Notes: a model not told the origin generated them from the sequence alone. Counted from the stretch's first letter, positions 12,001-44,786 are shown. The stretch is DNA of 64,000 nt from a virus (IMGVR_UViG_3300032322_001295:1-64000), one strand, 5' to 3'. Translations and numbers: made by a program.

Positions 12001-15000
12001 CCAAAGGATATTCAAGATTACATGAGGTCAATGCCCGGTAATGAAAATATGAATGAAGTAGATGCAGTATTGAATTTCTTGAAACTTGATGCAAATAAAG
12101 ACATATTCAATTATGTAAAATCAAACTCAGGTATGTACAATGGTGGATTTTCTAGGTCTTACTACAATACAGCATACAATTATTACAAAAAACTACAAGC
12201 GCATGGTTCAGAATATGAAGAACAATACAAAAATAACTTAAATAAAAATAGTGACATTTTCGATAGTATGGTTTCGTTCCTTATCAATGATGTAGGATAT
12301 GATGAGGCATTTATAAATACAGCAATAGCAACCGCTCAAACAGAAAACAAAGGTGATGTTTTGCTATCTATGATTAGAAATATTAATATCAATAACATTA
12401 GTAAAGAGATTTCTAAAAAACACAATATTCTTAAAAATGTACTTGATAACTTTATAAAAGATAACCTTGAAGAAATAACTGACAACGAGTTTAAAGCTGA
12501 AATAGAAAAAGCGCTTAACTCTAAAGATGTTCAAGCATCATACGATATTGTTAACAGCATAGCTAGCATGTCGCCTATTGATAATTTGGCTAATATTAAC
12601 GAAGAAAGCAAAGCATTGTCTGAGAAGTACAAAAAGTTTTTTAAAGACCTAAAATCTTACAAGGACAATCTCAAGAAGAATAAAAATCTTTCTAGAAAAA
12701 CCGATCCTAGTTATATTAATGAAGTATATCTTGTTACTAAATATGCTATGCTTGGTGATATTATGAGCGATTTAGTTAAGGTTGCTAATATCAATCAGTT
12801 TAAACAATCAAAAGCTTATGATCAAAAAAAGTTTGAAAACGATTTTACGTTTGCCACTGGTTATACTATTGATGAACTTATTGGTATCTATGATAGATTT
12901 AACAGCTGGAAAAAAGACAACGGAGCAAGTAGCACAATAGGTGACTACTTTGACGCCAATCCTAATGAGAAAAAACCTATTGAAGCAGTAAGAGAAACAG
13001 CTTTTAAAACAAAAGCACACACTATGTCTCAGGTTGATTTTTCCTATATGAAAGATAGCATAGAGTCACCTGTAACTGGAGAAGTAATAAACTACTACGA
13101 AGACTACCACAAGATATTTGATTTTGCATCTATACTGCTTTCTAGGCCGGATGTAATGGAAAGCTTTAGAGCATCACAAATGTTTAAAGACATTAACTCT
13201 TCAATATTTAACATAGAGTCTACGGAAATACAATCTATGATAGACACTATAACAGATAACATTGCTTACGATATACTTCCAGAAGCTAAAAGCATAGTTT
13301 TAAAAGAAGAGATTAGTAAGTATTTTGTCCATTTGTATCTTTCCGAAATCAACAACAATGGTTTTGAATCAATAGTAAAAGAAGATATATTTAAAGCATT
13401 AGAAAAGTTTAATATTCTTACGCTTCCAATGACAGCTGGTTCATCAACGTCAAATGGAATGATGCATAATATTGGCAATCCTATTGGTGTAAGAAACTTT
13501 ATATCAAACTTTCCAGAGTTTTTTGATACAAGAATAAGACAATCAGAAATGCAAAGGTTGAAAGAAATGAGTAGTAAGTTTACTGCACAAGACCTTGAAT
13601 CTGCGTATGAGTTTATAGACAGAATAGAAAAGTATTCATACAACCGTATGGATTATCTTGAAGTGCAAAAGTCAAGAGTGCAAAACGCTAATGAAAATGA
13701 AATGCTTAGAGATGGCTTTAATAAGCTGTCAAATGAAACACAAACATTGCTAGCGTTGTACCATATTCTTAAGAACCAGTTTGACACAAGTAGGTCGTTT
13801 TTTGGTGAAGTATTACCTAAAAAGTTTCTTATCGATTATTCTAAATTTTTAAAAGAAGTATTGCCTACTAAAGAAATAAGTCAGGATTTGAATAATATTT
13901 CAGAAATGATTTTGTCTAACACAAGTCTTGATTTGCTTAAAAATGAAAAACGTATCTACAAAGATGGTAAAGAGTTTTCACAGGCCCCAGCTGCTTGGTA
14001 TGGCGTAGCCAAGCATTATAAGAAAACAATACAAACGCAAAAATCTAAAGTAGGTACGACAATAAGAACATTTGCTCTTGGTACTACCAATGGTATAAAT
14101 GGAGTTGCACTTACCCAGGGATCTGCTACAAAAACATCATTGTCAAATGTAGTACCATTTGATTCTGTAATCAATATGTACAATGATACAGATGCAATGG
14201 GTAATCCTATTACAATATCACTTAGTTATACTCCTACAATACTAAGAAACTTAAATATACCAATGTCATTCTCATTGGATTTAAGGCCGCACGCTTACAT
14301 CAAAAATATATTGCATGGGCATTTAGAAAATGACATACAAAACGCTATTAAAAGGCAGACACAAGAAGGCGTAGAACTTACTCCACAGGATGTATTGCAG
14401 ATAGTTAATGATGTTATGTCAAGAGATTTAAATAATGTTTATAACAAAAAAGGTATTCCTGCATTGCAAGATAAGACAACTTCAATGGATATGGAAAACA
14501 TGATAAGAAATAATGTTTTTAATATTACCGTTAACTCTATTTTGCAAAAACATGGCCCAAATGCTGATGCAATGTTGCAGTCATTAGATGGTAAAATGCT
14601 TAAAGATGAATACTATTATAGCGATATAGCCCCTTCGTACACATTGCACGCTGCGTTAAACATGCTTAAAGCTGAAGGCAAGCCGTTTACTATAGAAAAT
14701 CTTAGAGCAATAGAATCTATACCATCAATAGAATTATTTAGCGATACGTATGGCGTTCAATCAAACGAAGATGCTCCATTGGTAAACTTACTTGGTACTT
14801 TTGGTAATTACTTTACCAGAGAAAATGCTAGAGATTCTGGCTATGTGGTTGCCGTAAACATGAAAGGTCCAAACGGAGTAGGCACAAAAGAATTGTTCTA
14901 CGAAGCAGCAAAAGAAATATTTCAAGATACAAGTTTAAAAAACGATCAACTTAATACATTGCTTGCTAATATTCTTATAGCTGATTCTATAGGAATGTCT

Positions 15001-18000
15001 ACAGCTGATATGAAAAATAGAATAAACTCATTGTCAACTGTATCAACAAGCAATATAGATTTATTAAAAGAAGTTGCTTTTAAAACTTACTACAAACATG
15101 TTGATAGAAATATTGATGAAGATATAAGCAAAAGACATTCTACTAAATATCACAACATCAATAAGAGTATTGCAGAAGGAAAAATAACTGAACTTTTTGG
15201 CTCTATAAAATCAACTGTAGAAACATTGCAAAGGTATCAAGAAACACCGTATGAAGTTGGCGATATGATACATTTTCCTGATGGTATAGTTGGTATTGTT
15301 ACTAATGTTACATCAGAAAACAATGTAAACTATGTTATTAACCATAAGCTTACAGACAATAGAAACATATTCAATGCACAAAGAGCTGTTGTAAGTCTAG
15401 AAAACATCATGCAAAAAAACAACACAAGGTTTGCACTTGATGGTTTTGTTAGAACAATAGCCGGCATTATGCCAAATGTTGAGTACAGATATGTTAATGA
15501 CGAAGAAGCCCGTCAAATACAAAGGTCTGAACATGACAGCGTATCTTTCTACCAAGATGGTATTGTTTACATAAATGTAGATAAAGCTGATAGAGGTGTT
15601 GCTATTCACGAGTTTGCGCATCCATTGACATTGGCAATGCAGATAGAAAAGCCTGAACTATTTAACGCAATAGCGCAACAGGTTTCTCAATCTAGTGTAA
15701 TGGACTATGTTAGAAAAATGTACAAGGATGATCTTGATACAGAAGAAGCAATGATACTTGAAGCAATACCAACATACATTCAGTTTAGGTATTACGCAAG
15801 ATTGGCGCACGAAATGTCACCAGAAGAAAGAGCAAACTGGGAAATGTTTTTTGCTGAGGCAGGTTCTATATTTAAAGAAGCGTTAATCGGTGATGTAAAT
15901 GCAGAATCAAGTATTGACAATGTTGATTTTAAAACTGCTGACCTTAACTCTATATCTGATGCTATCTTAAATGATATGCTAAAAGGTAAGGAGTTTGTAG
16001 TCAGAAACAAAGAAGCGTTTAATATTGCTAGGTTCTTGCCATATACCATGCGGGCATCATCTGCTTCATCGGTCAAGAATATAAACTTAACAAATATAGA
16101 TACGTTATTTCAGCGAAAGTCGCACAATACAAAGGATGACAAAGCTAGAAGACAAATAATGGATTCTATTCAAGGTAATACATTCTCTGGATTATCAGGT
16201 ACTTATGACTTGACTATGAGAAACAAAGATTTCTATGACCCTAATGGTAATTACGATCAAAAACGCAAAGAAAAGTTTATTGTTAAAATAGTTGAAAACG
16301 AAATGGCGTTTTATGGTGGTATAGAAAATAACATTATTCAGTTCTTAAATGAACTTAAAGTACTTGAACCATTAGCTGCAGCAAAGCAATCATTATTTGC
16401 ATCTTGGAATAAGCGCTACGATTTACCTAATGCTACAGAAGTACAGAAAGAGCAACTTACTCAAAACATACAAAAAATGATGAACAAACTTGGCTACAAT
16501 CCAAATTTAGACCAAGCAATGATGCTAAGTGAAGCGGAAAAAACACTTGGATTAAAACTGCCCAATGGTGTAAAACTCGATAACACAATTGTCATTGTTC
16601 ATAACATTGGTAAGCCGGCACAAGAAATATCAATATTAAATGTTTCTCCAGAATACCTTAGTAATCATGGTATGGAAAAGAATAATATTGCTGCTGCGTT
16701 TATTGGAGAAAACTTAACTAATAAAGAAAAGAAACGTGCTAAAAAATTACAAAACGTAACTTTATCTAATGATAACGGACATATTGAAGCAGTTAAAACA
16801 GCTGTAATTGCTATGGCTATTAAAAAATCTAGTCCTGGTACAGTCATTAGAAAAGTAGGTGCCATGCATGTAAATGGTAGTAACATATCTGTAAGAAGTC
16901 GTGATGTGGATGACACTGTAAGACAGATTGAGTTGCTTGTTGACAATGTTCCGCAATTGCGTGATAATCTAGAAGTGGATATAAGAGATATTGTATCTGA
17001 TAAAACTTTGTACAACATGAACTTATACAAAGTACCTGTTGGAACTAGACTGCTCAACTATTTTAGAACGCTAATATCTACTTTAAAGCCTAATGATAAC
17101 TATAAAAAAAGTGTACAAAACACAATAGATCAAGGTATTAAAGTATTTGAAAATGGTGATAACTCATTTTACCAAGATATTCAAAAAGCTGTATTTGGTA
17201 GAATAATGCACTTAGCTGAAGAACTAGATAGCGATGTAGCAAAGGCTGCCAACGAAGAATACCAATTTTTATTACAAACGTATAGAGAACTTACTGGTTA
17301 CAACGAGATTAATACTCAAAGATTTAACGAGCTTTCATTTGATGAAAAGCTAATACAGACGGCAGACCGCTGGACAGGAGGAATAAGAACATGGTTATTT
17401 GACCAAGTTGATCTTGCTTCTAGAAAAGGTGTTAATGAAATGGTTCCGTTTAACAAAGAGTTGAACAAAAGAACAAAAACATTAAACACACTTTCTGGTA
17501 ATATTTTAAGTTATGGCCTTGACAAATCACATGATTTATTTAAACCATTATTTAAAAAGGCAACCGGTTATGATCAAAATGGTAAAGAAGTTCAAATATC
17601 AACTCACGAAATACATTGTGATATAAATGATGCTGAAACTGCAAGAGCATTAGCCAACAGAGAAATAACTACAGAACAATTAGAGTTTGGTAAATGGTTA
17701 GCCGATAGCATGTATGAAGAGTTTGTTCAATACGTAATGACCGTTGAACGCAAAAACATATCACAGCGCGCAAATATGACTGAGGTTGAGCTTAGAGCAG
17801 CAGCAGAAAATGAAGTAGCAAGACGATACAAGAGAGGTATGATGCCTGTATTTGTCCGTTCTACGGGTTCTGCTTTAAGTGAAGGCAAGTTGATGGAAGC
17901 ATTAAATATGTACATGAAAAACGCTGGTAGATTTATCGGTGGTGCATTGTATGAAGAGTTTACTCAAACAGAAGATGCAGATTACCAAAAAGAATCATTC

Positions 18001-19836
18001 AGAAAACTTATGTCGCCGTTCTGGAATCAGTTCCAAAATGCAGAACTATATGGTGGTTCATTTAGAATGAAACTTCTTGGATTAGACCTAAAAGTTAGAA
18101 ATCAGGATAGATCTCTTGAAGTAATTGCTCCGGAACTACAAAACTCATTGTCATATAACCTTCAGAATATAGGTAACTATACCATGATGGCATCTAAGCG
18201 TACAAAGTACATGCAAAGAGCAGTAGCATCTGCAAATATTGCAATGGATATGCTTAGAGGAGAAGAAGCAATGCGCGGTATAAATACTAAAGACGCAAGA
18301 GAGCATGTAGAAAACTATATTAACAGACAGATTTATGGTAATCTTCCAGAAATGCCTAAAGTAATGCTTGGCAATATATCTGTAAATATTGACTACATGT
18401 TAGATGCTAGTAACAGATTTATAAATATGGCACACCTTGCCGTTAAGCCTGGTGTTGCAATGAAAAACGTAGTAGCTACAACATCTAAACTTTTAATTAA
18501 TGCTTTGATAAATCAGATATCAGGTAAGAACTTTAATATTGCTAATGTTACTCGCGCTGTAGAGCAAATGTTTTCAAATGGTGAAAAAATAAGAGCATTA
18601 AATGAAAAGTATCAGTTTGTAAACATGAGTGAAAAAGATTTAATCAATCACTTTCAACATGTAGTAAGTAAAGCAAATGCTACTGAGCCAGATGCTCAAA
18701 TGATTCTTAACTGGTTTGGTGATTATTACAACCAGCTTATTGGTGGTATTGCTCAAATGATTAACGATGGTACTTATGATGCACACGACGAGTTTGGTAA
18801 TTACGATGAAACAAAAGACAAACGATTTGAAGGAGAAGATGGTGAATATATCAAAAACGCTATTATTGAACAGCAGTACAAAGAAGGATATCACATTCTT
18901 GATAATGGCAAAATGACACACGCATACACTCAAAGACAAGAGAACCATGTAAAATTGCAAGTGCAAAGATTTGTTGGTGAGTTAACCGATCCTAAATACA
19001 AAAACTTAGCATCAAGTTATTCATTTGTTCGTGCTGCGTCATCAATGAGAAGCTATATGTACAACGTAGCACAAGCATGGTGGAAAAACCCTAGCCAAAC
19101 AGTACATCTTGGTGGTTTTAAAGTAATTGAAGTTGATGGTAAAAAAGAAACTGTTTGGGCCCCAGAACTTACAGAGGGTATGATTAATACATTAATTTAT
19201 TGCGCTAAAGGTTTGAGAAATGCTGTAAAAACAGGTACATTTGATGATTATAAAAACATGTCTAGTTTCCAAAAGCGTAATCTTATAGCAATGGCTACGT
19301 TTACTGGTATCATGGCCGGTGTTTATCTTCTTGCAGATTCAATGTTATACGATGAAGATAGAAAGAAAGTTAAAAAATACCGTTATGAAAAAGACCCTAA
19401 AACAGGTAAGCGTAAAAGAGTAGATATTGATGAGCCTTGGATTTCTGAAAGATTATTATCTATGTTGTATGATACAAAATATGATATGCCAATAAAAGGT
19501 GACTTGTCTATGACTGAAATGTTTGCCAAAAATATACTTTTAAAAGGTGTTGAAGAACAACTGTCTTATGTATCTCCATATAGAATGTTTCAAGATATAG
19601 GTAGTATGCCATCAACTCATATTATGCAAGCTGATAATGTAGCTCAAACATTTGTTTCTACATTGATGTTGCCCTGGACATTGTATCAACAGAAAGATAT
19701 TGAAGGTCTTACTAATGAACTTGATGAGTATTTCTATGATTTAAGTAAAAACATGCCTCTTGGTGGTGGTTACCGTGACATACATGACACATACGATTAC
19801 ATGTTAAATTATATTGGTGAATCAACTAAAAAATAA
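1..19836 (+). CDS. Giant virion-associated polyprotein, 5'-truncated: SF1 (RecD-like) helicase + zincin + crAss-type two-barrel DNA-dependent RNA polymerase + second zincin + C-terminal hydrophobic segment
   Basis: Frame +1 is open from base 1 (NHLEEIVGKK...), so the true start is upstream and the GTG at 133 is not the start. Helicase motifs: GYGGVGKST (1747-1773), IFADE (~1966-1980), LLGDTLQAPP (2101-2130), SPQGRTLD, TAVSRA. Zincin motifs: HEISH (4780-4794), HEFAH (15607-15621). RNAP-like motifs: KR (8788), FDGQ (8944), GMRIP (11260-11274), GSDQDVD (11371-11391), NAATDNPK (11908-11931). Confidence 0.85.
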   Translation, partial: NHLEEIVGKKIDDISKKINDEREKIQNELDTDFNSVRDKFGFDDVTFDDLYNKTGNDEIDAAIDEVLGKKKDKVERFSALNGVDNEIKNAKTLLKNRGAVKYVPGGGIDTRTGEWNNGDYFTQQANQRKYKKVNKDVETEIDEKTFLSMQDAAKAQGKDSFEYNGEMFIADDSNQIKVDGKKAVDRSTLVDDSQLFDFLEIDDVNELFLKMPTVGGMNIREELNKISKEYDETKVLTAQMKERLKEINKNITDQEEMLSVYKWAKMLSENKILSPIQEEYMDMQTFNEINLPAYINKLAVDRSYFMNVAISTLSKDDRDNKLNELKDNVIKMQAHVYNELVAELNGDDIVVNGQTVKFPSEISLDSSETEVMQAYQWMHYFIQNLTPDQKNEFKETFDKFWSTKVESKDSIPSAKEQGMFLEGFDLMFDFEAFKDGYTKSKYHNKNNSYRELFYYHAINMMMNVDPMIAFGAISNVIDAVDASQKFELDKSKYPAGDHTAEQIMNVMIGITHLSENIKRNEANPDVAFIELLDHVKSTMKIGTSREGRFNKAKGLYDRVKDAATGKYNTNGKHIKDNVMSFFGYGGVGKSTFIIKTLSEIALSLGKKNFVFIAPNIEQKNILENTVKNIFPKGIHAEFYLVSDFVKKQDQYKDYVIFADEISLYSDEEKNSIAFNYNKIGGKKISTVDNVGFIDESNTVFLLGDTLQAPPSGEIYDNSPRIEQFTQHGFNITSVKRSSFIEIYKIQTEFRRNAKNNELGPPQLFGYSYSEDDNVKKGVKLNNDKDGFLAESKAAVESGIGYIIVHSEKEYNEIINDISPDKHDRVFLMTQLSKSPQGRTLDGEVYVYMPYSTTDTKSQYNNNKLYNMYMLTAVSRASQFVSVYTGDGLGNKNSVKVSEDKIESFDDSAEAKVERKQQLWNRISGVVKGLTAVKPVPLPVRNTNKPKAPVVQTDDLNQEEEKPEENAASNNTKGKGVKSNSKKPKKTTQVKTNNRKRKTTNKNKKQYEEQQEALEEEINEPITAYEQNVSNQGDMSEDELDNLDGNQDTDTDHSNIESSIDNGEFGLTLKTGENNVNLVTTFVNGNPFVVVVGGTYRKPDGEIIKVTRIISNDDGTYSVKTDKLKMVIPLEKFSELALSPSIDILDKYENALISFTQSGILTLFGKTIGYTPAMGPLTNKKALAAKYQEMANATAMLYKNLGQRFEVKIEIVKNMPTVDWNGSVNTAFPYVLQVSIDNGNGFEYFTTHYLQDPQRINKTVADNAQQENLEVYNNTLFGIVEKLYNANRTEFYTSATKNNISASSFIGFHKDIPVMSYSQVKDMVGMYGMELTETFQGIDKKGLAETYAIAHFGNKDNGQKIIFQSITASNMNDEQKNLMLNEVNRMRGILQNAVNQKLPNEAVNKQALQGTDSIFAFNNSFALLNNAVIAQKLYTEKDAENKTTIEERIKIRLEVLNDLAAFLSPVKDADYKYKYESLVSQFRLNTKMQGGKEVTGIEYMSTVKGLFLRMPVIDISAGILLDDTKGLASKITNQQELENYTSSFAEIQSELEDILGEGIQLGIIKSDLYHGFVDKLGKIHMNMHNGAFNPKTLSHEISHYVSEFLLTDEKQAELFDEVDKKYGVTQKQGNWRNDLDARRTVAEHLADDGERYKSDRRNLKGISKVMRSFFDWFNRFMSRIGIINDKINDFYYDLYVAKKYKSLSGMALNTVRDEMPYDSLYSRIIYDDSSFNTVANNFFYDNQIARQVANNVAEIAAKEVIMPSMNRRMFLDGAMSFTDMINRIENNSREKVMYDTDENGNTIYKEQVINGKSMFLPVIRELTVDYTKPFLRWNYNATDENGNSVTGLHLQYYDESIKGYKTAVPNSQGIFFTEKRQREEFRRLLQKSVDEFEIETVNGLVSVVDKTIEGKMKLKGIISNKDKVLYKNAMLLNSKVFKAMINRIFPSLDVDTIINRDGQVRYSDILESLIRVQDANIRKNEEELNPMDKQSDIMKLMLNTIPVYQFLPDGSVVEMRGKKLNYEVANKILTDIHSNLWIGNSQDGIEAFAKSMKRFIENKMMNNTNPTELNSDAKFISAYSIYKTYFDPQAKQSTDKYYYPSHTRIYNWNKQLSTKTRGTKDYQDALDRFYAEYLTAVNTEKESDETIRKQTPLTKDEFELNIAKRSKLSETILNSVITHFGSLTSNKFENVKKYGKGKRTTFVSMAKQSSSAHDTKLKLEQSIISNLQINGGLMPDRYVDLFINRKRPLKVKEGQEKSNSYFTMTDRGIRYRHKTNDPSDLGVIIMPLENGKFRNMKPDEINKLTQYAKNAQTNISGIIRKVFTDFFNMSKSSTAKNAAKVLSVPKVGSNTHGIENLSDVLAPLIASMYVYTVERTVDPNQITAKQPVYPLYLQALANTAKDSGQKENYGKITDATIDSILDKDAGSNILKDGEEYFFPTGFYKELQALAEIMTYNENNPTILSLDGRRKLYTIGNSHNFNYKFSNGKNDSLVEKFEEVVKGPHTNPNARGSKILNPILERKGIITSTPYMMGIDSTGKTAELKNMTVQDNLHAALANFTKNENQKALTYNISPVLIPVNNGGNRGRQHLFEVRLGHFNGNGNGFLTKQTIDNVDTFKLDVRNIASQLKRGFAIKEEAQVNSINRWMNFLMNPANNKITNNASSYFASLGLGLSPIDTTIPGWKAQRDATVPALVEYLKNYDAWIIDDDVVGFEGSGLRLGSDFLIIKANKNDKGGRLHLGHDASMMNKVLTRNEDGSLKFRSLAQQLFNYSNYNNTVTIDVDENNQIKFKLHEVLRTDDFNNEQIYVNYIDNLGLTQTYMFTDDNLQFIIDSLFEKHYKETNEIALADGYKMTSENVFDLYPYEDNIKVVDGINIYGTTPSVVWKGLIIGHAMVNYFSDHAIEGTEANHLSSVIYENETGPLTYGVNRNKRALSHTSTGFTPSFKTHNGMDEESRIMVIKDLKVNASISTLLGEINKEHIVFDGQSFNNPFSMEMYFNSIGGNNGSLNRRIQKSIAQQFNYKDGSTFLKKHAGFIVSKSMMDSSVDMANLFEYMLNPALRLVIKGEDLNKISFLKKSDIDNLANDSLYQRYLIYFDQSATETALKQTLSNINSKFGSLKTMLEGSIKYKNNAPAVDSILADWKNSQFNDTIVGQYDFISKVLADINNQGLLSQEGDKDHGRAIEMLVDFYAEYRAKNPDTYKTKYPYLSSIQFTGNKKDQTKDFEMPFVAFNKSAGATHSDANGQFNQGRPMPMFVKDGDAAPTNFYELVDYWKNQKEDAPYDKWTYMFDNTQEITQLNPEREIDDNEESPMVQAMSIILANPNSLNTGLAQEIATDLSSLMRVGLENVMRFITNEGKWSEDVDQRIKDLKIQTSDIISETGVVLSNKEIATIENFVKSKIKKSMSQSDDTTMLSEIISDDQISLNVSHGAVTRAQQYVAAFLRKEAVKRKVDAMRLVQAGGNFIDIVEHKETGEVFMLAEAYKHAAKMGVSFDSLFDVNSVRGLKHTTIDAKPDLSVEQLAQVRAIDTIMNQAIAENPANEKQIKKDFSRIKMKYLAEQNLLNVSKGEAIVPAVMFKKFNIPSNVGLNEIFRLYGKKDGIVNETNLIEASSDYNATKELIQSFVNDNISFEMKYNSNGKPRVEVLYNENQSGLNTYFEIMFVDGLNKYLKDNYKKFGSIYAKVDKEMELKYGDSYRAMKEGSLEKSVEDIKQELRTRLAEESTAFAQSEIANLVDKYTDAITSVAITLKDNIGMRIPSGPGSGFINNIVGFINDASSVGYVNTIKNLIDGSDQDVDQFTIYYLSSTMLDSGKMSILEYNNWKDKQKKDGNYNVLSDEEAKVINNKLIRHLQRYYSDPLNAELTMAAIDLDPVKKAADGTYRELFKDGDLAHNIGHSFVYRNIAMDGQAVGPFANAQKLQTLLYSGYSMNQRRGIDSSIYNFKINKVENAIGQLEDEYSKVPVYMEMLINAATDNPKLLILGAMNITMNNSDMASAMMFAPKDIQDYMRSMPGNENMNEVDAVLNFLKLDANKDIFNYVKSNSGMYNGGFSRSYYNTAYNYYKKLQAHGSEYEEQYKNNLNKNSDIFDSMVSFLINDVGYDEAFINTAIATAQTENKGDVLLSMIRNININNISKEISKKHNILKNVLDNFIKDNLEEITDNEFKAEIEKALNSKDVQASYDIVNSIASMSPIDNLANINEESKALSEKYKKFFKDLKSYKDNLKKNKNLSRKTDPSYINEVYLVTKYAMLGDIMSDLVKVANINQFKQSKAYDQKKFENDFTFATGYTIDELIGIYDRFNSWKKDNGASSTIGDYFDANPNEKKPIEAVRETAFKTKAHTMSQVDFSYMKDSIESPVTGEVINYYEDYHKIFDFASILLSRPDVMESFRASQMFKDINSSIFNIESTEIQSMIDTITDNIAYDILPEAKSIVLKEEISKYFVHLYLSEINNNGFESIVKEDIFKALEKFNILTLPMTAGSSTSNGMMHNIGNPIGVRNFISNFPEFFDTRIRQSEMQRLKEMSSKFTAQDLESAYEFIDRIEKYSYNRMDYLEVQKSRVQNANENEMLRDGFNKLSNETQTLLALYHILKNQFDTSRSFFGEVLPKKFLIDYSKFLKEVLPTKEISQDLNNISEMILSNTSLDLLKNEKRIYKDGKEFSQAPAAWYGVAKHYKKTIQTQKSKVGTTIRTFALGTTNGINGVALTQGSATKTSLSNVVPFDSVINMYNDTDAMGNPITISLSYTPTILRNLNIPMSFSLDLRPHAYIKNILHGHLENDIQNAIKRQTQEGVELTPQDVLQIVNDVMSRDLNNVYNKKGIPALQDKTTSMDMENMIRNNVFNITVNSILQKHGPNADAMLQSLDGKMLKDEYYYSDIAPSYTLHAALNMLKAEGKPFTIENLRAIESIPSIELFSDTYGVQSNEDAPLVNLLGTFGNYFTRENARDSGYVVAVNMKGPNGVGTKELFYEAAKEIFQDTSLKNDQLNTLLANILIADSIGMSTADMKNRINSLSTVSTSNIDLLKEVAFKTYYKHVDRNIDEDISKRHSTKYHNINKSIAEGKITELFGSIKSTVETLQRYQETPYEVGDMIHFPDGIVGIVTNVTSENNVNYVINHKLTDNRNIFNAQRAVVSLENIMQKNNTRFALDGFVRTIAGIMPNVEYRYVNDEEARQIQRSEHDSVSFYQDGIVYINVDKADRGVAIHEFAHPLTLAMQIEKPELFNAIAQQVSQSSVMDYVRKMYKDDLDTEEAMILEAIPTYIQFRYYARLAHEMSPEERANWEMFFAEAGSIFKEALIGDVNAESSIDNVDFKTADLNSISDAILNDMLKGKEFVVRNKEAFNIARFLPYTMRASSASSVKNINLTNIDTLFQRKSHNTKDDKARRQIMDSIQGNTFSGLSGTYDLTMRNKDFYDPNGNYDQKRKEKFIVKIVENEMAFYGGIENNIIQFLNELKVLEPLAAAKQSLFASWNKRYDLPNATEVQKEQLTQNIQKMMNKLGYNPNLDQAMMLSEAEKTLGLKLPNGVKLDNTIVIVHNIGKPAQEISILNVSPEYLSNHGMEKNNIAAAFIGENLTNKEKKRAKKLQNVTLSNDNGHIEAVKTAVIAMAIKKSSPGTVIRKVGAMHVNGSNISVRSRDVDDTVRQIELLVDNVPQLRDNLEVDIRDIVSDKTLYNMNLYKVPVGTRLLNYFRTLISTLKPNDNYKKSVQNTIDQGIKVFENGDNSFYQDIQKAVFGRIMHLAEELDSDVAKAANEEYQFLLQTYRELTGYNEINTQRFNELSFDEKLIQTADRWTGGIRTWLFDQVDLASRKGVNEMVPFNKELNKRTKTLNTLSGNILSYGLDKSHDLFKPLFKKATGYDQNGKEVQISTHEIHCDINDAETARALANREITTEQLEFGKWLADSMYEEFVQYVMTVERKNISQRANMTEVELRAAAENEVARRYKRGMMPVFVRSTGSALSEGKLMEALNMYMKNAGRFIGGALYEEFTQTEDADYQKESFRKLMSPFWNQFQNAELYGGSFRMKLLGLDLKVRNQDRSLEVIAPELQNSLSYNLQNIGNYTMMASKRTKYMQRAVASANIAMDMLRGEEAMRGINTKDAREHVENYINRQIYGNLPEMPKVMLGNISVNIDYMLDASNRFINMAHLAVKPGVAMKNVVATTSKLLINALINQISGKNFNIANVTRAVEQMFSNGEKIRALNEKYQFVNMSEKDLINHFQHVVSKANATEPDAQMILNWFGDYYNQLIGGIAQMINDGTYDAHDEFGNYDETKDKRFEGEDGEYIKNAIIEQQYKEGYHILDNGKMTHAYTQRQENHVKLQVQRFVGELTDPKYKNLASSYSFVRAASSMRSYMYNVAQAWWKNPSQTVHLGGFKVIEVDGKKETVWAPELTEGMINTLIYCAKGLRNAVKTGTFDDYKNMSSFQKRNLIAMATFTGIMAGVYLLADSMLYDEDRKKVKKYRYEKDPKTGKRKRVDIDEPWISERLLSMLYDTKYDMPIKGDLSMTEMFAKNILLKGVEEQLSYVSPYRMFQDIGSMPSTHIMQADNVAQTFVSTLMLPWTLYQQKDIEGLTNELDEYFYDLSKNMPLGGGYRDIHDTYDYMLNYIGESTKK

Positions 19837-25446: not shown

Positions 25447-25471
25447 TGTGTTGTGTTTTATAGTTAAAAAG

Positions 25472-25565
25472 TAGTCCTGACAGGATTCGAACCTGTAACG
25501 TACATCTCATATCTTTGATGCAAGCACTTGATAATAGTTGCGTCTACCAATTCCGCCACAGGACT
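25472..25565 (-). tRNA. tRNA-like RNA (Leu-type D arm, canonical T arm, non-canonical anticodon arm); possible pseudo-tRNA
   Basis: Minus strand AGTCCTG-TG-GCGGAATTGGTAGACGC-A-[42 nt]-ACAGG-TTCGAAT-CCTGT-CAGGACT-A: perfect 7-bp acceptor and 5-bp T stem. No 5-bp anticodon stem and no encoded CCA. Confidence 0.7.
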
Positions 25566-29330: not shown

Positions 29331-29932
29331 AATGATAATGCTTTTTCCTCTGTTGACTCTTTTAATCTTTCAACAGCGTTAATGTAAAGATAATGAGGAG
29401 AATTGACAAATTCACCAGTTTTCATGTTCAAATAACAGATATGCTCATCAAGTGTATCAAAAGTAGCCTCATCATGAACCAACTCTACGTATGGTTTGGT
29501 CCTGATATGATTGTCGCTGATAATCTCACCGGAAAAGCATTTGTTAAGTACATACCGATTAAAATTTCTGCTATCTTTTTTGCTGTACGCAAACACGTTT
29601 ACTCCATCAGTAACACTGGCAAACTTAGATGCCATGTCCTGCACGTTAGTAATTGGTGCGCTCATTACAATACTGCCACCTCTAACAACTGCTATGTAAA
29701 CAGGAGTTGCTATTGATGTGTGATGTACATAATGAAGATACCAATCCCTGGGATCTGTATGCTGCGTAATGTAGTTCTCGAAATCCCTGATATTCTTTTC
29801 GAATAGTTGATTGAGAAACAAGTTTTGCTGAAATACTGACAAGCCGTCAAAAGAAACAGCTGGGCCGCCGTATACAACGACAGCCACAGCAATATTTCTG
29901 TTTTGAAACTTGTTAAAAGGAAATGTTTCCAT
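29306..29932 (-). CDS. Hypothetical protein
   Basis: 208 aa, coupled to the ParB-like gene. Confidence 0.65.
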   Translation of the reverse strand: METFPFNKFQNRNIAVAVVVYGGPAVSFDGLSVFQQNLFLNQLFEKNIRDFENYITQHTDPRDWYLHYVHHTSIATPVYIAVVRGGSIVMSAPITNVQDMASKFASVTDGVNVFAYSKKDSRNFNRYVLNKCFSGEIISDNHIRTKPYVELVHDEATFDTLDEHICYLNMKTGEFVNSPHYLYINAVERLKESTEEKALSFWKISQEL

Positions 29933-31971
29933 TAGCTAATAACTTGGTATTTATTCTTATCGTTTTTGTAAGCAAATGCTGTTTTGAAGTTAAAGCATTC
30001 TTTCACTTTCGTAAAGAACGAAACAAACATTGCTTTTCTTCTCTGCTCTGTATCACTAGACTTTATGATGCCTTTAATATCAAATGTCTGTAGCGTAGCA
30101 TTTGCATTAACAAAGTTATACTCATGCATTAAACTAGCAAGTTCTCTCATTTTGGCATTTAAATCAGTTCCATTTAAAGTTTCCTCTTTAGTTGCAGCAT
30201 TAAACATTTCAGTGCCTTTTTCCTGACAAAGTTCTATCATTTTAAGACCAGCAATCATACTATCTGTATCAGCATCATCATCAATAGTGCTTAGTATTTG
30301 ATTTACTAGATTCTTAACACGCATTCTCATGATGAACTCACTGCCTTTATATGGAATACCAATGTTCTTGCAAATGTAAGTAAGCAATGCTTCGTCGGCT
30401 TCATCAATAGAATTATAGATACTTTTGCCTGTTTCGTATACATTGATATAGCACATATCTACAACAAACTTGCGTCTTGCTTTAGCATCATCGTCAATCT
30501 CTTCAGATCTTTCTGTTGCTTTCTCAGTCATATCTGCACGCTTAAGTTCAATAGAACTGTATTCATTCTCGTATTCTTTCTCCAAATCAATGTTATTGTC
30601 TTTAAAGAACATAGTAAGAACATTAGGAGTATAGGATGCCATTGTCATCAGATTAGCTTGTAGAAACACAGTCATCGCATAAGATGCACCAGCTTTTTCA
30701 ACAAGGTCTGCGCCATTGCTAATGCTGTCACCAAGTAAATGCTCAATGCAATTACTTAAAGCATTGTTGATGTGCATACCTTTAAAGAAAGCAAGTACAG
30801 CATAGTCTAAAGTTGCTCCATCTTGATTAAGTTGCTTCATCAATCTAAACACAACATCTTTCCTTGCTTGCTCTTTCAAGCTTGTAATCTTACGATTAAC
30901 ACGCTCAATAGCAGCATCTTGCTTTTTCTCAACATAACTTTCTTCTGCTTTGACACTTTCAATCAAAGATGGCTTGACAAAGAACTTAATATTGCCATCA
31001 TAATCCCAGCAAGCAACTTCTTCAGGATGTGTACCCATAGCGCATGATATATATCCCGTTATGTCATATCTGTCAACAACTTTGAGTTTGTTTTCATCGA
31101 TAAACTTTTCCCAATATGCCCTTGATCTAGCTTTTGTTGCATAAATATCAGATGTTCTAGGTCTATCAAACATATTACCTACGTTGATGTACCATTTCTC
31201 TTCTTTGATATTTGGATGCACATTGCCATCTAAATCAACAAAGCTTTCTTCTGGAACACTTTCAGATATTTCCGGCATGCAATAGTTAGACAATCTTACT
31301 ATTTCTCTATCATCAAGAGCTTCACCTTCTGTATGCAAATCACGATCATAAATCTCGTCAACAATCAATTTTTGTACAGCATCAGGCATATCGCACAATG
31401 CAGTAGCGCCAGACTCGTCGATAACACCTTCAAAGCAAAGCTTTATAGCTTCTTTGTTTAATGCCGCTATCTTGCGAAGTGATGTTGCTCTATTTACAGA
31501 AATACCAAGCTGACTAGCAATCTTTGGCAATGTCACACCTTTAACAGCAACAGCCTGTCTGATTGCATGGGCCAATGTAATAAAATGCTGCTCACTGCGA
31601 AGTACATTTTCAGTCAATGAATCGACAATGTTAATGCCATCCATAATATAAACTGGGATTTCTGCAGTAGCATCAATCTCTTTACACAAATCTTCATAAC
31701 GAGTAACAAAAGCCATTGCTCGGGTGTAGCCGGCACGAACAACATACTTGCCTTTTACTTGCTCGCAGATGATTGGCTGCAGCAATAAAGAACCAGTCTT
31801 TTTGTAGGTCTCAACCATTGAAACATACATTTTATCAATAGCATCACCATACGGAGTAGCATCATTTACATCATAATCTATGCCAGCAAATCTAGGATTA
31901 GGTATAGAAAAGTCAAGCAAATCTGGAGTTACTTTCAACATTTCGTTTTTAATTTTAATATTAGAAGCCAT
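29932..31971 (-). CDS. ParB/Spo0J-like N-terminal domain protein with long C-terminal extension
   Basis: NPR, LLQPIIC, YVVRAGYTRAMA (degenerate GxRR patch), SLTENVLRS, then HTH-like LPKIASQLGISVNRA; 679 aa. Confidence 0.75.
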   Translation of the reverse strand: MASNIKIKNEMLKVTPDLLDFSIPNPRFAGIDYDVNDATPYGDAIDKMYVSMVETYKKTGSLLLQPIICEQVKGKYVVRAGYTRAMAFVTRYEDLCKEIDATAEIPVYIMDGINIVDSLTENVLRSEQHFITLAHAIRQAVAVKGVTLPKIASQLGISVNRATSLRKIAALNKEAIKLCFEGVIDESGATALCDMPDAVQKLIVDEIYDRDLHTEGEALDDREIVRLSNYCMPEISESVPEESFVDLDGNVHPNIKEEKWYINVGNMFDRPRTSDIYATKARSRAYWEKFIDENKLKVVDRYDITGYISCAMGTHPEEVACWDYDGNIKFFVKPSLIESVKAEESYVEKKQDAAIERVNRKITSLKEQARKDVVFRLMKQLNQDGATLDYAVLAFFKGMHINNALSNCIEHLLGDSISNGADLVEKAGASYAMTVFLQANLMTMASYTPNVLTMFFKDNNIDLEKEYENEYSSIELKRADMTEKATERSEEIDDDAKARRKFVVDMCYINVYETGKSIYNSIDEADEALLTYICKNIGIPYKGSEFIMRMRVKNLVNQILSTIDDDADTDSMIAGLKMIELCQEKGTEMFNAATKEETLNGTDLNAKMRELASLMHEYNFVNANATLQTFDIKGIIKSSDTEQRRKAMFVSFFTKVKECFNFKTAFAYKNDKNKYQVIS

Positions 31972-41557: not shown

Positions 41558-42093
41558 ATAGTTTGTTTTAAAAATAAAATAATATTATTTACAAAAGTAT
41601 CGCCAGTAACTGATGTCGTTATATCTCCATCCTGGATTTCATAACGACATTCTGATAAGTTTAAATCAGACCTGTATACGTCATAGCTCCTTACTATATC
41701 TAGTGAAAGTAATAACCTGTAAGATGAGTTAAACCAGATGGTAAGTACAACTGACATACGCTCATGTATTATCATTCTACTTCCACTGTCAAAATCTGTA
41801 CAGTAATTATATTCATCAACAATATCGTAATGAATATTGCCACAAACAAAATGCTTTCTATCACCTTCAAAGTATCCAAGGCTATACTGATCATCACAGG
41901 ATATATCTGAACACTTGATTGCATGTAATACTAAAGCTTCTGCTATGCAACTAATGTATAGTTCAATAGCACTATCTCTTGTATCAGCATCTGCATCATC
42001 TATGATAGATTTCAGTAACAACAAAGATAGCTCCACATCATCAGCCAAGAATAATGTAGAGCATCTCTTTATCATATCATTTAGTTCTTGCAT
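41551..42093 (-). CDS. Hypothetical protein
   Basis: Start re-called at MQELND because 42114-42202 looks like structured non-coding RNA. Confidence 0.55.
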   Translation of the reverse strand: MQELNDMIKRCSTLFLADDVELSLLLLKSIIDDADADTRDSAIELYISCIAEALVLHAIKCSDISCDDQYSLGYFEGDRKHFVCGNIHYDIVDEYNYCTDFDSGSRMIIHERMSVVLTIWFNSSYRLLLSLDIVRSYDVYRSDLNLSECRYEIQDGDITTSVTGDTFVNNIILFLKQTIC

Positions 42094-42164
42094 GCCGGAC
42101 CAATGCATGCGAAGAACCCAAGAACAAAACCTACTAATGTAGGCAAGTGGGCCCAGTAATAATA

Positions 42165-42202
42165 AAGGAATACTGACAACCCAATGGTCATCAGTATCCC
42201 CC
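42165..42202 (-). terminator. 17-bp hairpin (terminator or RNase III-type processing site)
   Basis: GGGGGATACTGATGACC-ATTG-GGTTGTCAGTATTCCTT with G.U pairs on the minus strand, directly after the 42208 stop and followed by TATTATT. Confidence 0.55.
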
Positions 42203-42207
42203 AATTG

Positions 42208-42507
42208 TTAGAGATAAACTGTTTCACGTTGTACATTTTTAACAAACGCTTGAAAAACTCTTATTGACTCATCAATACCAGGAAGAGTGTTAAACATATA
42301 AATATCTTCTACGTTGTTGTTTTTATCTACGTAGATTTTTACTCCGACTTGACCAAATCCGTAGATTCGGTAACTTATTATGTAATGCCCCTCATCTTCT
42401 TTATACTTCCCATCTTCCCATAGATTAAGTTGGTACTGTGTACCATCGTTAGGAAATAACTCTTCCATTTTATTTAATACCTCAGTTCTTAATTCTTGAT
42501 AGTTCAT
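42208..42507 (-). CDS. Hypothetical early protein
   Basis: 99 aa, preceded by leader repeat R1. Confidence 0.65.
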   Translation of the reverse strand: MNYQELRTEVLNKMEELFPNDGTQYQLNLWEDGKYKEDEGHYIISYRIYGFGQVGVKIYVDKNNNVEDIYMFNTLPGIDESIRVFQAFVKNVQRETVYL

Positions 42508-42513
42508 AACTAT

Positions 42514-42563
42514 TATACTCTTGTCATCCTCACATAGGCTCGAGTTCTACCTATACGCTTGTT
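42514..42563 (-). repeat. Leader repeat R1 (50 nt, covarying stem-loop)
   Basis: 39/50 identical to 42793-42842; ends 6 nt before the ATG at 42507. Confidence 0.85.
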
Positions 42564-42574
42564 AGTTATTTGTT

Positions 42575-42787
42575 TTATATTGTTATTTCTGCTGGGTTCA
42601 TGCAAAGCATGACATCCCACTCTTGACCGTAGTCAGAAAAAACTAAACTGTATGGTTCGCGTTCGTAATACTGAACACCATTCCAAGAAAAAAGCATACA
42701 GCCTTCTTCGTCCCTGATTTGCAATCCATTATCATCAACACATGGAAGCAAACATTTAAGAGGGACATATTGTCCTGTCTGTGTCAT
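42575..42787 (-). CDS. Hypothetical early protein
   Basis: 70 aa, preceded by leader repeat R2. Confidence 0.55.
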   Translation of the reverse strand: MTQTGQYVPLKCLLPCVDDNGLQIRDEEGCMLFSWNGVQYYEREPYSLVFSDYGQEWDVMLCMNPAEITI

Positions 42788-42792
42788 ACTTA

Positions 42793-42842
42793 TATACTCT
42801 TGTCATCCTTACACGTGCTCGAGCTCTACACGCATACTTGTT
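42793..42842 (-). repeat. Leader repeat R2 (50 nt, covarying stem-loop)
   Basis: Partner of R1; ends 5 nt before the ATG at 42787. Confidence 0.85.
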
Positions 42843-42915
42843 TTTTTAAATGATTTGTTGTTTCTTACTGGATAGTACATACTACCCTCGCACCTGTAAA
42901 CTCAGGTTGTTATTC

Positions 42916-43125
42916 TTAATCTTCTAGTTTACGCACGTTCACATACGTTACTACAGTATCACCACTATTATCTGTATCTAGAAGTTGATTCCAGATATAA
43001 TCTGCAACTTTTTCCGCGTTCTCTTCAAGTACATATACACTGTGAAGATTGTCATTTAAATAAATACCATAAGAAAATGGTGTTAAATAATCAAAAGATA
43101 ACTTTTCCATAATACTAGTGACCAT
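42916..43125 (-). CDS. Hypothetical early protein
   Basis: 69 aa; start may be the later MEKLSF. Confidence 0.55.
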   Translation of the reverse strand: MVTSIMEKLSFDYLTPFSYGIYLNDNLHSVYVLEENAEKVADYIWNQLLDTDNSGDTVVTYVNVRKLED

Positions 43126-43314
43126 TCTTTATAGGGCATTTGAGTCATTTCCCTTGTTGTGAAAAATATATAAAGTGTAGATATAATCACCTATAATAAA
43201 ACCCACGCAATCACTTACAATATTAGTATGTATAACACTAATAGAGTTGTGCGATATGATGTAGAGTAGAGTAATGCGCAGCAGATGGTAGCCACTCACA
43301 CCTTTTCTCTATCA

Positions 43315-43330
43315 TGTTCCACGTGGAACA
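43315..43330. promoter_or_regulatory. parS: parS centromere-like site
   Basis: Perfect 16-bp palindrome TGTTCCACGTGGAACA matching the bacterial chromosomal parS consensus TGTTNCACGTGNAACA; intergenic. Confidence 0.8.
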
Positions 43331-43416
43331 ATAGCACTAACAGTCTGACAGTCAACGCTATATGTAAATCATTATCTAATATTTTGTTATCTTACTAACA
43401 GTAGTATGAACCTTTT

Positions 43417-43446
43417 AAAAAAACCCCACGCCCGAAGGCGCAGGGA
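43417..43446 (-). terminator. Rho-independent terminator with cUUCGg tetraloop
   Basis: CCCTGCGCC-TTCG-GGCGTGGGG-TTTTTTT just after the 43453 stop. Confidence 0.85.
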
Positions 43447-43452
43447 TTTTTC

Positions 43453-43815
43453 TTACTTCTTCTTCTTAGTAGTAGTTTTGACCACTACTTCTTTCTTTTC
43501 TTCTTCTTCTTCAGGAAGTCTAGTCTCGACGACAGCTTTGTTGTTGATGGTGACGAATAACTCCTCACCAGTTTCAAATACAAACTCTTGTTCGTCTAGG
43601 AAATCTTCTAGGATTCCATCTTTACGTAATTGGTCTATCAACTGATAGGCACCAATGGTACCCTTATCAGTCAAGATACACTGCGAAGCTTTCTGCCCCC
43701 AAGTGCCTTTTCCCAATAACTTTACAAGATGTTCCCCTTCTTTCATGAATAGAGGAGAGTTCTTTTCTCCTTTTTCAATGATTTCTGTAACCTTTCCTAA
43801 TGATACCTTGCTCAT
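43453..43815 (-). CDS. Hypothetical protein, stand-alone unit, charged C-terminal tail
   Basis: 120 aa ending EEEEEKKEVVVKTTTKKKK; has its own terminator. Confidence 0.65.
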   Translation of the reverse strand: MSKVSLGKVTEIIEKGEKNSPLFMKEGEHLVKLLGKGTWGQKASQCILTDKGTIGAYQLIDQLRKDGILEDFLDEQEFVFETGEELFVTINNKAVVETRLPEEEEEKKEVVVKTTTKKKK

Positions 43816-43910
43816 AATACATGAAATTAAAAAGTTAGATAATGATTTAACGCGGGGGTACGATACATTAAGTGCCCTCCCGTCTTTTTTCTTTTTCCTC
43901 TACCAAAAAC

Positions 43911-43942
43911 TTGCATAAAACGTGCTATCTGTGTATATTGTG
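43911..43942 (+). promoter_or_regulatory. Possible rightward promoter (TTG-N20-TATATTGT)
   Basis: Imperfect Bacteroidota -33/-7 arrangement about 35 nt before the ATG at 43976. Confidence 0.3.
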
Positions 43943-43975
43943 CCATTATTCATTCACTATTAAATCTATATTATT

Positions 43976-44479
43976 ATGCAGACTAGGATAAATTATTATG
44001 TAAGGACTACTACTGGTGGTCATATAAAGTTGGGTACTTTGGTTACGACTAAAGATTGCAAGGTACTGGGGGTAGTTGAGGAGGTTGGAAGATTACTGGG
44101 GATAGATGGGTGGAACTGTTACGAGGTTAATGGCAAGATGGTTGTTGATGGTCCTGGTATTCCTACTGATATTGTATATGATTTTGTTGTTAATCATACT
44201 GGTCAGTCTATGAGTTTGAGGTATGATAATAGTATTGATATTAGTGGGTTTGTTGTACCGAAGATAGGGGGGTATAAATATGTTGCACCGGTTGTTGGTG
44301 ATGAGGTTGTTGAGGTAGAGGCTGGTCCTGCTCCGAGTGAGAGTGTTGGGATGTTGAAAGAGCCTGATTATAGTAAGATGAAGAAGGCTGAGTTGTTGGA
44401 GATATTGGGTGATGACGGCGATGGTAAGTTGAGTAAGGCAGAGTTGATAGAAATTATTGTTAACAAGTTAAAGAAGTAG
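43976..44479 (+). CDS. Hypothetical protein with C-terminal HeH/Rho-N-like motif
   Basis: DYSKMKKAELLEIL...KLSKAELIEII. Confidence 0.6.
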   Translation: MQTRINYYVRTTTGGHIKLGTLVTTKDCKVLGVVEEVGRLLGIDGWNCYEVNGKMVVDGPGIPTDIVYDFVVNHTGQSMSLRYDNSIDISGFVVPKIGGYKYVAPVVGDEVVEVEAGPAPSESVGMLKEPDYSKMKKAELLEILGDDGDGKLSKAELIEIIVNKLKK

Positions 44480-44483
44480 GATT

Positions 44484-44786
44484 ATGATGTCTATATTAGA
44501 ATATTTGGAATGGCGTGGTGTTAATATTGATGACCATGAGGAGCGTATGTGGTGGATTGGCTGGGAGGACGCTCATTGTATGGGCAGGAGTTATGATGGC
44601 TGGAGGGATTTGAGTAGTAGTGCAGATGGCCGTTATGAGAAGTTTGCTGCATTGGTTGTTGATTACTTGCTTTATTGTAAGGTTGCTGTTGAGAATGTTA
44701 GTAATCATTATGTTTTTAATGAGCCGGGGGTGTCTTATGAGGAAGTGATTGTTGGTAGTCAGAGAGGAGGGTCTTGTCATGAATAG
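44484..44786 (+). CDS. Hypothetical protein
   Basis: 100 aa, operon-packed. Confidence 0.55.
   Translation: MMSILEYLEWRGVNIDDHEERMWWIGWEDAHCMGRSYDGWRDLSSSADGRYEKFAALVVDYLLYCKVAVENVSNHYVFNEPGVSYEEVIVGSQRGGSCHE

Follow-up and report, generated by a model that had tools for sequence, protein, structure and literature searches.

A phage that we assign, from its gene families, to the crAss-like (Crassvirales-like) phages as a distant member carries a single, perfect chromosomal-type parS site, TGTTCCACGTGGAACA, in a non-coding block that is conserved among its close relatives. The site lies in the window (the whole stretch of DNA that was analysed, 64 kb in length), which is the first part of an IMG/VR virus record of 87,877 bp that has direct terminal repeats. 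How crAss-like phages, which do not integrate, are able to persist with their hosts has yet to be resolved. A conserved host-type centromere leads to a directly testable hypothesis of such persistence, in which the phage DNA would be partitioned, positioned or silenced via host ParB. Our evidence leans towards host ParB as the reader of the site (a variant in which ParB is titrated included), because a ParB-like protein of the phage itself, P0001, lacks the canonical parS-reading residues and because the same word is the chromosomal parS across phyla. That the site is a working host-type parS, kept to load the host's own ParB, we regard as an evenly balanced proposition.

The parS site and its conserved block

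The sequence-only reading had called the word a perfect chromosomal-type parS and had found one copy of it, and both statements hold for the exact word located here (Table 1). It is palindromic at 16 of 16 positions, fits TGTTNCACGTGNAACA exactly, and is the single match with up to two mismatches in the whole 87,877-bp genome. Letter for letter, it is identical to the validated parS2/parS3 of Pseudomonas aeruginosa, a perfect palindrome with the highest ParB affinity in that organism, where a single copy of parS2/parS3, combined with parAB, makes an otherwise unstable plasmid stable (PMC4368675). Palindromy itself is unremarkable, because shuffled sequences give the same number of perfect 16-bp palindromes (~2) as the genome (2); the unusual part is which palindrome is present. 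The exact word is ~1 in 65,000 possible 16-bp palindromes, and arithmetic from the 34.5% GC composition gives an expectation per genome of ~3e-4 matches for TGTTNCACGTGNAACA and ~1e-5 for the exact word. It is also the sole notable GC-balanced palindrome in the phage genome. A look-alike with three mismatches, TGTTTCACGTTGTACA, is found 1.1 kb away at 42220-42235, within an ORF of the variable cassette. The left half-site of this word is that of a perfect parS and its right half is broken; it shows no conservation and could be a chance occurrence.

The genome is organised around a divergence point, with leftward genes running from 43815 down to ~23.7 kb and rightward structural genes starting at 43976. 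Earlier, the site had been placed in a non-coding gap beside this point. The gap is indeed non-coding, because just one ORF, at 43129-43299 on the minus strand, reaches into the block, and it is not kept among relatives, where it encodes 30-59 aa and differs in length in each; the site, however, is not within the divergent gap itself, as it lies ~485 bp to the left of that gap, in the next one. Reading leftward, the order is the 120-aa gene, its terminator, a spacer of ~90 nt, parS, ~100 nt of conserved non-coding DNA, and the accessory cassette. The leftward genes encode the recombination proteins ERF, Gp157 and an SSB-like protein, together with RadC and a spore-photoproduct-lyase-like protein. 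For the ten genes around parS, PHROGs and Pfam gave no informative match.

Table 1. Features around the parS site and the gene for the ParB-like protein, in window coordinates. Identity is to four relatives.
Feature	Position	Strand	Identity	Remarks
P0001, ParB/Noc/KorB-like, 679 aa	29932..31971	-		Residues 1-228 are the ParB N-terminal domain and HTH
Hypervariable accessory-gene cassette	42215..43165	-	0-0.32 (non-homologous)	Directly left of the parS block
Conserved non-coding block around parS	43215..43415	none	0.88-0.98
Direct ACTAAYAG copies (three)	43237-43244, 43336-43343, 43394-43401	+		Bracket parS; unchanged in relatives
46-nt core ending at parS	43286..43331	none		Sole aligning stretch, from the cassette to 43877, in X2/X3
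Perfect chromosomal-type parS, TGTTCCACGTGGAACA	43315..43330	none		Exact word; intact in all close relatives
Sigma-70-like motif, TTGACT-16-TATTGT	43328..43355	-		-10 hexamer overlaps the parS edge; reads into the cassette
Intrinsic terminator of the 120-aa leftward gene	43424..43445	-		9-bp stem with 7 GC pairs, then a T run
First leftward gene, 120 aa	43453..43815	-	0.62-0.77	No family match; lies between the parS gap and the divergent promoter gap
Divergent promoter gap	43816..43975	none	0.94-1.0 (over 43815-43965)
Sigma-70-type motif, TTGCAT-17-TATATT	-35 43911-43916, -10 43934-43939	+		In the divergent gap

Intact copies of the word were found at the same position in four IMG/VR relatives and in two JGI contigs. 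The neighbouring proteins of the parS-bearing relatives are 80-95% identical to those of the window, placing all of them in one shallow clade. At the syntenic position, parS is intact in all of the close relatives, and in G001, the only distant near-complete relative (terminase 44% identical), no parS is present even with two mismatches. L149, an intermediate relative, ends ~1 kb before the expected position of parS and falls outside this comparison, and blastn of the 41-46 kb region against GenBank phages gave no match.

We infer that the non-coding element around parS is under purifying selection, because the block is 88-98% identical to the four relatives versus 62-77% for the neighbouring gene, and the adjoining cassette is non-homologous. 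By the same comparison, the conserved block is the right-hand edge of a gene-swap zone. The relatives in which the cassette is non-homologous are otherwise 85-98% identical to one another. With ~7.6% divergence in their late genes, the lake contigs X6/X7 have no listed difference across 43257-43381. In X2/X3, the most diverged lake contigs, 598 unrelated letters replace the 120-aa gene, and the core that still aligns (Table 1) has five differences whose placement is not resolved, so that the 16-mer cannot be called intact there. The loose-end word of the X2/X3 relative had no match in IMG/VR.

Both conserved blocks, around parS and in the divergent gap, carry sigma-70-type motifs (Table 1). 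These are consensus matches only, and the region holds eight promoter-like sites versus 4.4 expected. If real, such sigma-70-type promoters differ from the type known in Bacteroidota, and their presence in both blocks would suggest that the host of the phage may not be a member of this phylum. GC skew turns at ~44 kb, a turn that simply tracks gene orientation, and no DnaA-box cluster is found near parS. The RNA fold of the minus-strand block is not significant (z = -1.57), and an Rfam search of 42000-44500 returned nothing above threshold, with a sub-threshold PhrS match over the terminator only. A search of the phage genome for dispersed palindromes and for arrays of repeated k-mers found neither.

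The parS word in bacteria and other viruses

Bacterial genomes from many phyla contain the exact word, frequently as clustered copies, and Flavobacterium, Chitinophaga, Daejeonella and Bacteroidales are among them. In five Bacteroidota genomes, consensus sites number 1-5 per genome and are clustered, most being of the TGTTCCACGTGGAACA variant, and of 301 sampled Bacteroidota genomes, 23 contain the exact word versus none for the reversed word. A host parS consensus that differs from the phage site had been named as grounds for dropping the idea; for Bacteroidota it does not differ, and the exact variant is used there. The Daejeonella MAG L188 (NZ_JBIKSU010000005.1) has a chromosomal parS pair that includes the exact word. 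It shares Lake Mendota sample 3300044732 with one of the phage relatives, L003 (IMGVR_UViG_3300044732_001099), which is a co-occurrence only and no host assignment.

In IMG/VR, at least 120 contigs carry the exact word (loci L007-L126). Control words were found in three contigs (reversed word) and in 66 contigs (the CG-to-GC word TGTTCCAGCTGGAACA, L277-L342). Raw counts were rejected as an enrichment test, as controls of three and 66 versus at least 120 make it unclean, and the intergenic fraction was used instead. Among the viral parS sites, 46/114 (40%) lie outside ORFs of at least 100 aa, compared with 402/2400 (17%) for random positions in the same loci, 0/61 for the CG-to-GC control word, and 49/151 (32%) for the same word in bacterial genomes. 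All 61 scorable occurrences of TGTTCCAGCTGGAACA are inside ORFs, where the word probably encodes part of a motif conserved in a widespread phage gene, which calls for care with controls based on word counts.

Most of the viral records that carry the word have no ParB: none was detected by PF02195 or TIGR00180 in 46 of 50 records (G006-G055), a survey for which TIGR00180 is sensitive enough, as it detects P0001. A tyrosine integrase is encoded by none of the 16 word-carrying records that are at least 99% complete. On these counts, an orphan host-type parS looks like a recurrent feature of non-integrating phages. Dozens of viral contigs carrying the word, preferentially at intergenic positions and mostly without a ParB, suggest that the site described here is not a one-off. 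In two of the viral loci (L057 and L085), the word is located in a divergent intergenic gap. A search of other parS-bearing viral records for the crAss terminase family gave no match, and its controls gave none either.

The ParB-like protein P0001 and the phage gene content

A ParB-like gene had been reported from the window before, and its existence is supported here by family models, profile searches and structure comparison. The protein, P0001, matches the NCBIfam models TIGR04285 (Noc, E=5.9e-6) and TIGR00180 (parB_part, E=4.7e-4), and is below threshold for Pfam PF02195 (ParB_N). A profile of 12 homologues searched against the PDB retrieves Noc (4.8e-6), Helicobacter pylori ParB (4umk, 1.1e-4) and Bacillus subtilis Spo0J (4e-3), and the distant matches of an exhaustive phmmer search with P0001 are canonical ParBs. 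In Foldseek, the AlphaFold model of P0001 (pLDDT 80) is matched to ParB, Noc and KorB (8qa9) with E values of 1e-6 to 3e-5 and a probability of 1.0 over ~225 residues. The remainder of the protein (residues 230-679, window 29932-31281) is a helical C-terminal region of 450 aa that has no sequence or fold match; in the ESM Atlas, all scores for this part were at or below 0.85 and serve as leads only.

The family of P0001 is small, comprising ~ten 50%-identity clusters among 1.84 billion representative proteins. Homologues at 49% and 35% identity exist, tblastn of one homologue (P0013) against GenBank phages gave no match, and G001 has no ParB-like gene. The NTP-pocket motifs of P0001 are NPR25-27, G81-Y-T-R84 and E121-N-x-x-R125 (Box I/II/III: xPR, GxxR, ENxxR). 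They align to QPR, GERR and ENLQR, with the glutamate and first arginine of GERR changed to Y and T. These motifs (NPRF, GYTR and ENxxR) are invariant in a 12-sequence family alignment and are kept at 90% or more in a 19-sequence alignment, where the exception is a fragment that lacks the N-terminus. The N-terminus of P0001 contains no LG(K/R)GL-like motif.

The residues that would read parS are largely changed. Caulobacter ParB contacts parS through Q162, G170, K171, S172, R173, N178, G201 and R204, and in the deep mutational scan of Jalal et al., R173 was invariable among parS-specific variants (PMC7383237). P0001 retains two of these eight residues (G170 and S172), the substitutions being Q162 to L, K171 to I, R173 to V, N178 to S, G201 to S and R204 to T. 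GISV of P0001 is placed opposite GKSR in two independent alignments (the HMM alignment to Noc and a MAFFT alignment with canonical ParBs), and the parS-contacting positions vary within the P0001 family. Because two of eight contact residues are kept and R173 is replaced by valine, P0001 is not predicted by the established residue code to be a reader of canonical parS.

The affinity of the phage, also proposed earlier, is shown by its terminase, portal and major capsid proteins, which belong to crAss-type families (phrog_6681, phrog_6547 and phrog_11589). The best tblastn matches of the terminase are to crAss-like and Flavobacterium phages, at only 25-29% identity. A giant ORF of more than 6,600 aa (virion-RNAP-type) occupies positions 1-19836, and DNA related to the phage has been recovered from lake and freshwater metagenomes. 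The replisome genes that had been noted as missing are not found in a Pfam-level search of the whole genome: Pfam models gave no PolA, PolB or DnaB, nor any tyrosine integrase or serine recombinase. The lack of PolA, PolB and DnaB suggests that replication of the phage depends on the host replisome. ParA is likewise not detected, with no PF13614 or PF01656 match in the genome. As judged from the gene content, a complete ParABS module is absent, since the phage has no ParA and P0001 has no ParA-activating motif. ARAGORN identifies a tRNA-like gene of 95 nt at 25471-25565 (minus strand), with an undetermined four-base anticodon (atca).

Candidate readers and roles of the site

If the site is read by host ParB, ParB-CTP dimers of the host would nucleate at the single palindrome after injection and close into clamps. 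These would then slide across the flanking few kb, a stretch that takes in two conserved promoters of the host-RNA-polymerase type (43328-43355 and 43911-43939). The partition complex formed in this way would link phage DNA to the ParA gradient of the host, to SMC, or to both. Because the phage genome encodes no replicative polymerase, helicase, integrase or ParA, it would be copied by the host replisome; it would be positioned on the nucleoid and, in a carrier or episomal phase, passed to both daughter cells. When occupied, parS would also damp the leftward promoter whose -10 hexamer it overlaps. The absence of these genes fits the hypothesis of host ParB, and the gene content as a whole suggests a plasmid-like element, in line with reading by host ParB. 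Several points count against host ParB. The site appears confined to one shallow clade and is absent from G001. Moreover, P0001 and parS co-occur and are both missing from G001, a single comparison that equally fits the phage ParB as reader, and the phage seems to offer no other candidate site for P0001.

These points lead to P0001 itself, which could act without ParA as an NTP-gated clamp that loads at the palindrome and slides over the divergent promoters, serving as a KorB-style regulator of an early/late switch or as an organiser of phage DNA. P0001 has the fold for this (a ParB N-terminal domain and HTH, with NPR, GxxR and ENxxR kept and KorB among its structural matches). It is the sole ParB-family protein of a genome in which parS is the sole notable GC-balanced palindrome and no alternative repeated site is present; gene and site are both absent from G001, and the site is 0.5-0.65 kb from two conserved promoters. 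Non-canonical DNA binding is also conceivable, as in KorB. We nevertheless consider P0001 a rather unlikely reader. Its gene is 11.3 kb from the site, its recognition-helix residues vary within the family, and ParB is missing altogether from the majority of the other viral records with parS. With a likeness to ParB of only E ~1e-5, P0001 would not be expected to have kept the universal 16-bp word unaltered; even in Noc, a far nearer relative of ParB, the site has already changed. The contact residues weigh in the same direction, with two of eight kept and valine at the equivalent of R173 (PMC7383237). Even with host ParB as the reader, P0001 may modulate it or compete with it at the site.

A reader of an altogether different kind would be implied if the block is mainly an origin, a promoter/operator of the cassette or a recombination hotspot, with an unrelated reader and an incidental parS identity. 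Conservation does extend over ~200 bp, well beyond the 16-mer, and the block contains three ACTAAYAG repeats that bracket parS, has a promoter-like motif overlapping parS, borders the cassette-swap zone and is near the GC-skew turn. Such a coincidence is improbable, however, given that ~1 in 65,000 palindromes is this word and ~1e-5 copies are expected per genome. In addition, the core that survives in the most diverged relatives ends exactly at parS, the skew merely follows gene orientation, and neither a DnaA-box cluster, a significant RNA fold (z = -1.57) nor an Rfam match above threshold marks the block. Host ParB could also be the reader to the detriment of the host, with replicating phage copies titrating ParB or mis-loading SMC and thereby disturbing segregation, ParA/DnaA control or a ParB-dependent process. 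All evidence for host ParB applies here too, the reader being the same. In P. aeruginosa, harm results when parS-ParB interactions are in excess or ectopic (PMC4368675), and the borrowed parS copies of SGI1 both stabilise SGI1 and displace its helper plasmid (PMC10954446). Yet no evidence tells such an outcome apart from partition, it is not obvious what a lytic phage would gain, and a single site on each genome would titrate ParB poorly before many copies have accumulated. We consider an anti-host role improbable.

Partition of phage DNA through a centromere has precedents. P1, P7, N15 and mycobacteriophages with parABS are plasmid-prophages that are kept extrachromosomally in this way. In these phages, ParA and ParB are phage-encoded and the parS types are particular to them and not chromosomal, whereas the crAss-like phage described here has no ParA and a site of the host type. 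The identical 16-bp perfect palindrome, also at low copy number, is known from parS2/parS3 of P. aeruginosa (PMC4368675); the phage site differs in having no parAB operon or oriC nearby, and its putative reader would be supplied by the host. A parasitic element that carries centromere sites for the partition system of another replicon is found in SGI1 with the IncC parABS (PMC10954446). SGI1 is an integrative mobilisable island that borrows the system of a helper plasmid, whereas the phage would borrow that of the chromosome.

KorB (with KorA) of the IncP-1 plasmid RK2 is a ParB-family CTP clamp that structurally matches P0001; it loads at palindromes near promoters (OB sites) and silences at a distance, and is not a classic centromere protein (PMC11790492). 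RK2 has 12 OB sites with a sequence of their own, whereas the phage has one universal chromosomal parS, and P0001 differs from KorB in lacking the canonical reading residues and in its extra 450-aa C-terminal region. The parts are therefore known, and what is new is their placement on a crAss-like phage, beside a divergent ParB-like protein. In the literature searched, no paper describing chromosomal-type parS on phage genomes was found, which is not proof that none exists.

Loading of host ParB at the phage site, if true, would be a new viral route to exploit a core machine of the bacterial cell cycle, and the parS word would then offer an easy way to recognise, from sequence, phages that have an episomal phase. 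We can tentatively speculate on a wider class of segregating episomes, formed by non-integrating phages (this lineage, which lacks its own replisome, included) that ride the host ParABS/SMC with a single borrowed host centromere. Such a class would account in concrete molecular terms for the carrier state, or pseudolysogeny, that has long been debated for crAss-like phages and others of virulent appearance, a generalisation that we find doubtful at present. The ACTAAYAG repeats are a further element of the block: three of the window's 11 copies fall inside 165 bp around parS, and these may be candidate sites for a second DNA-binding protein.
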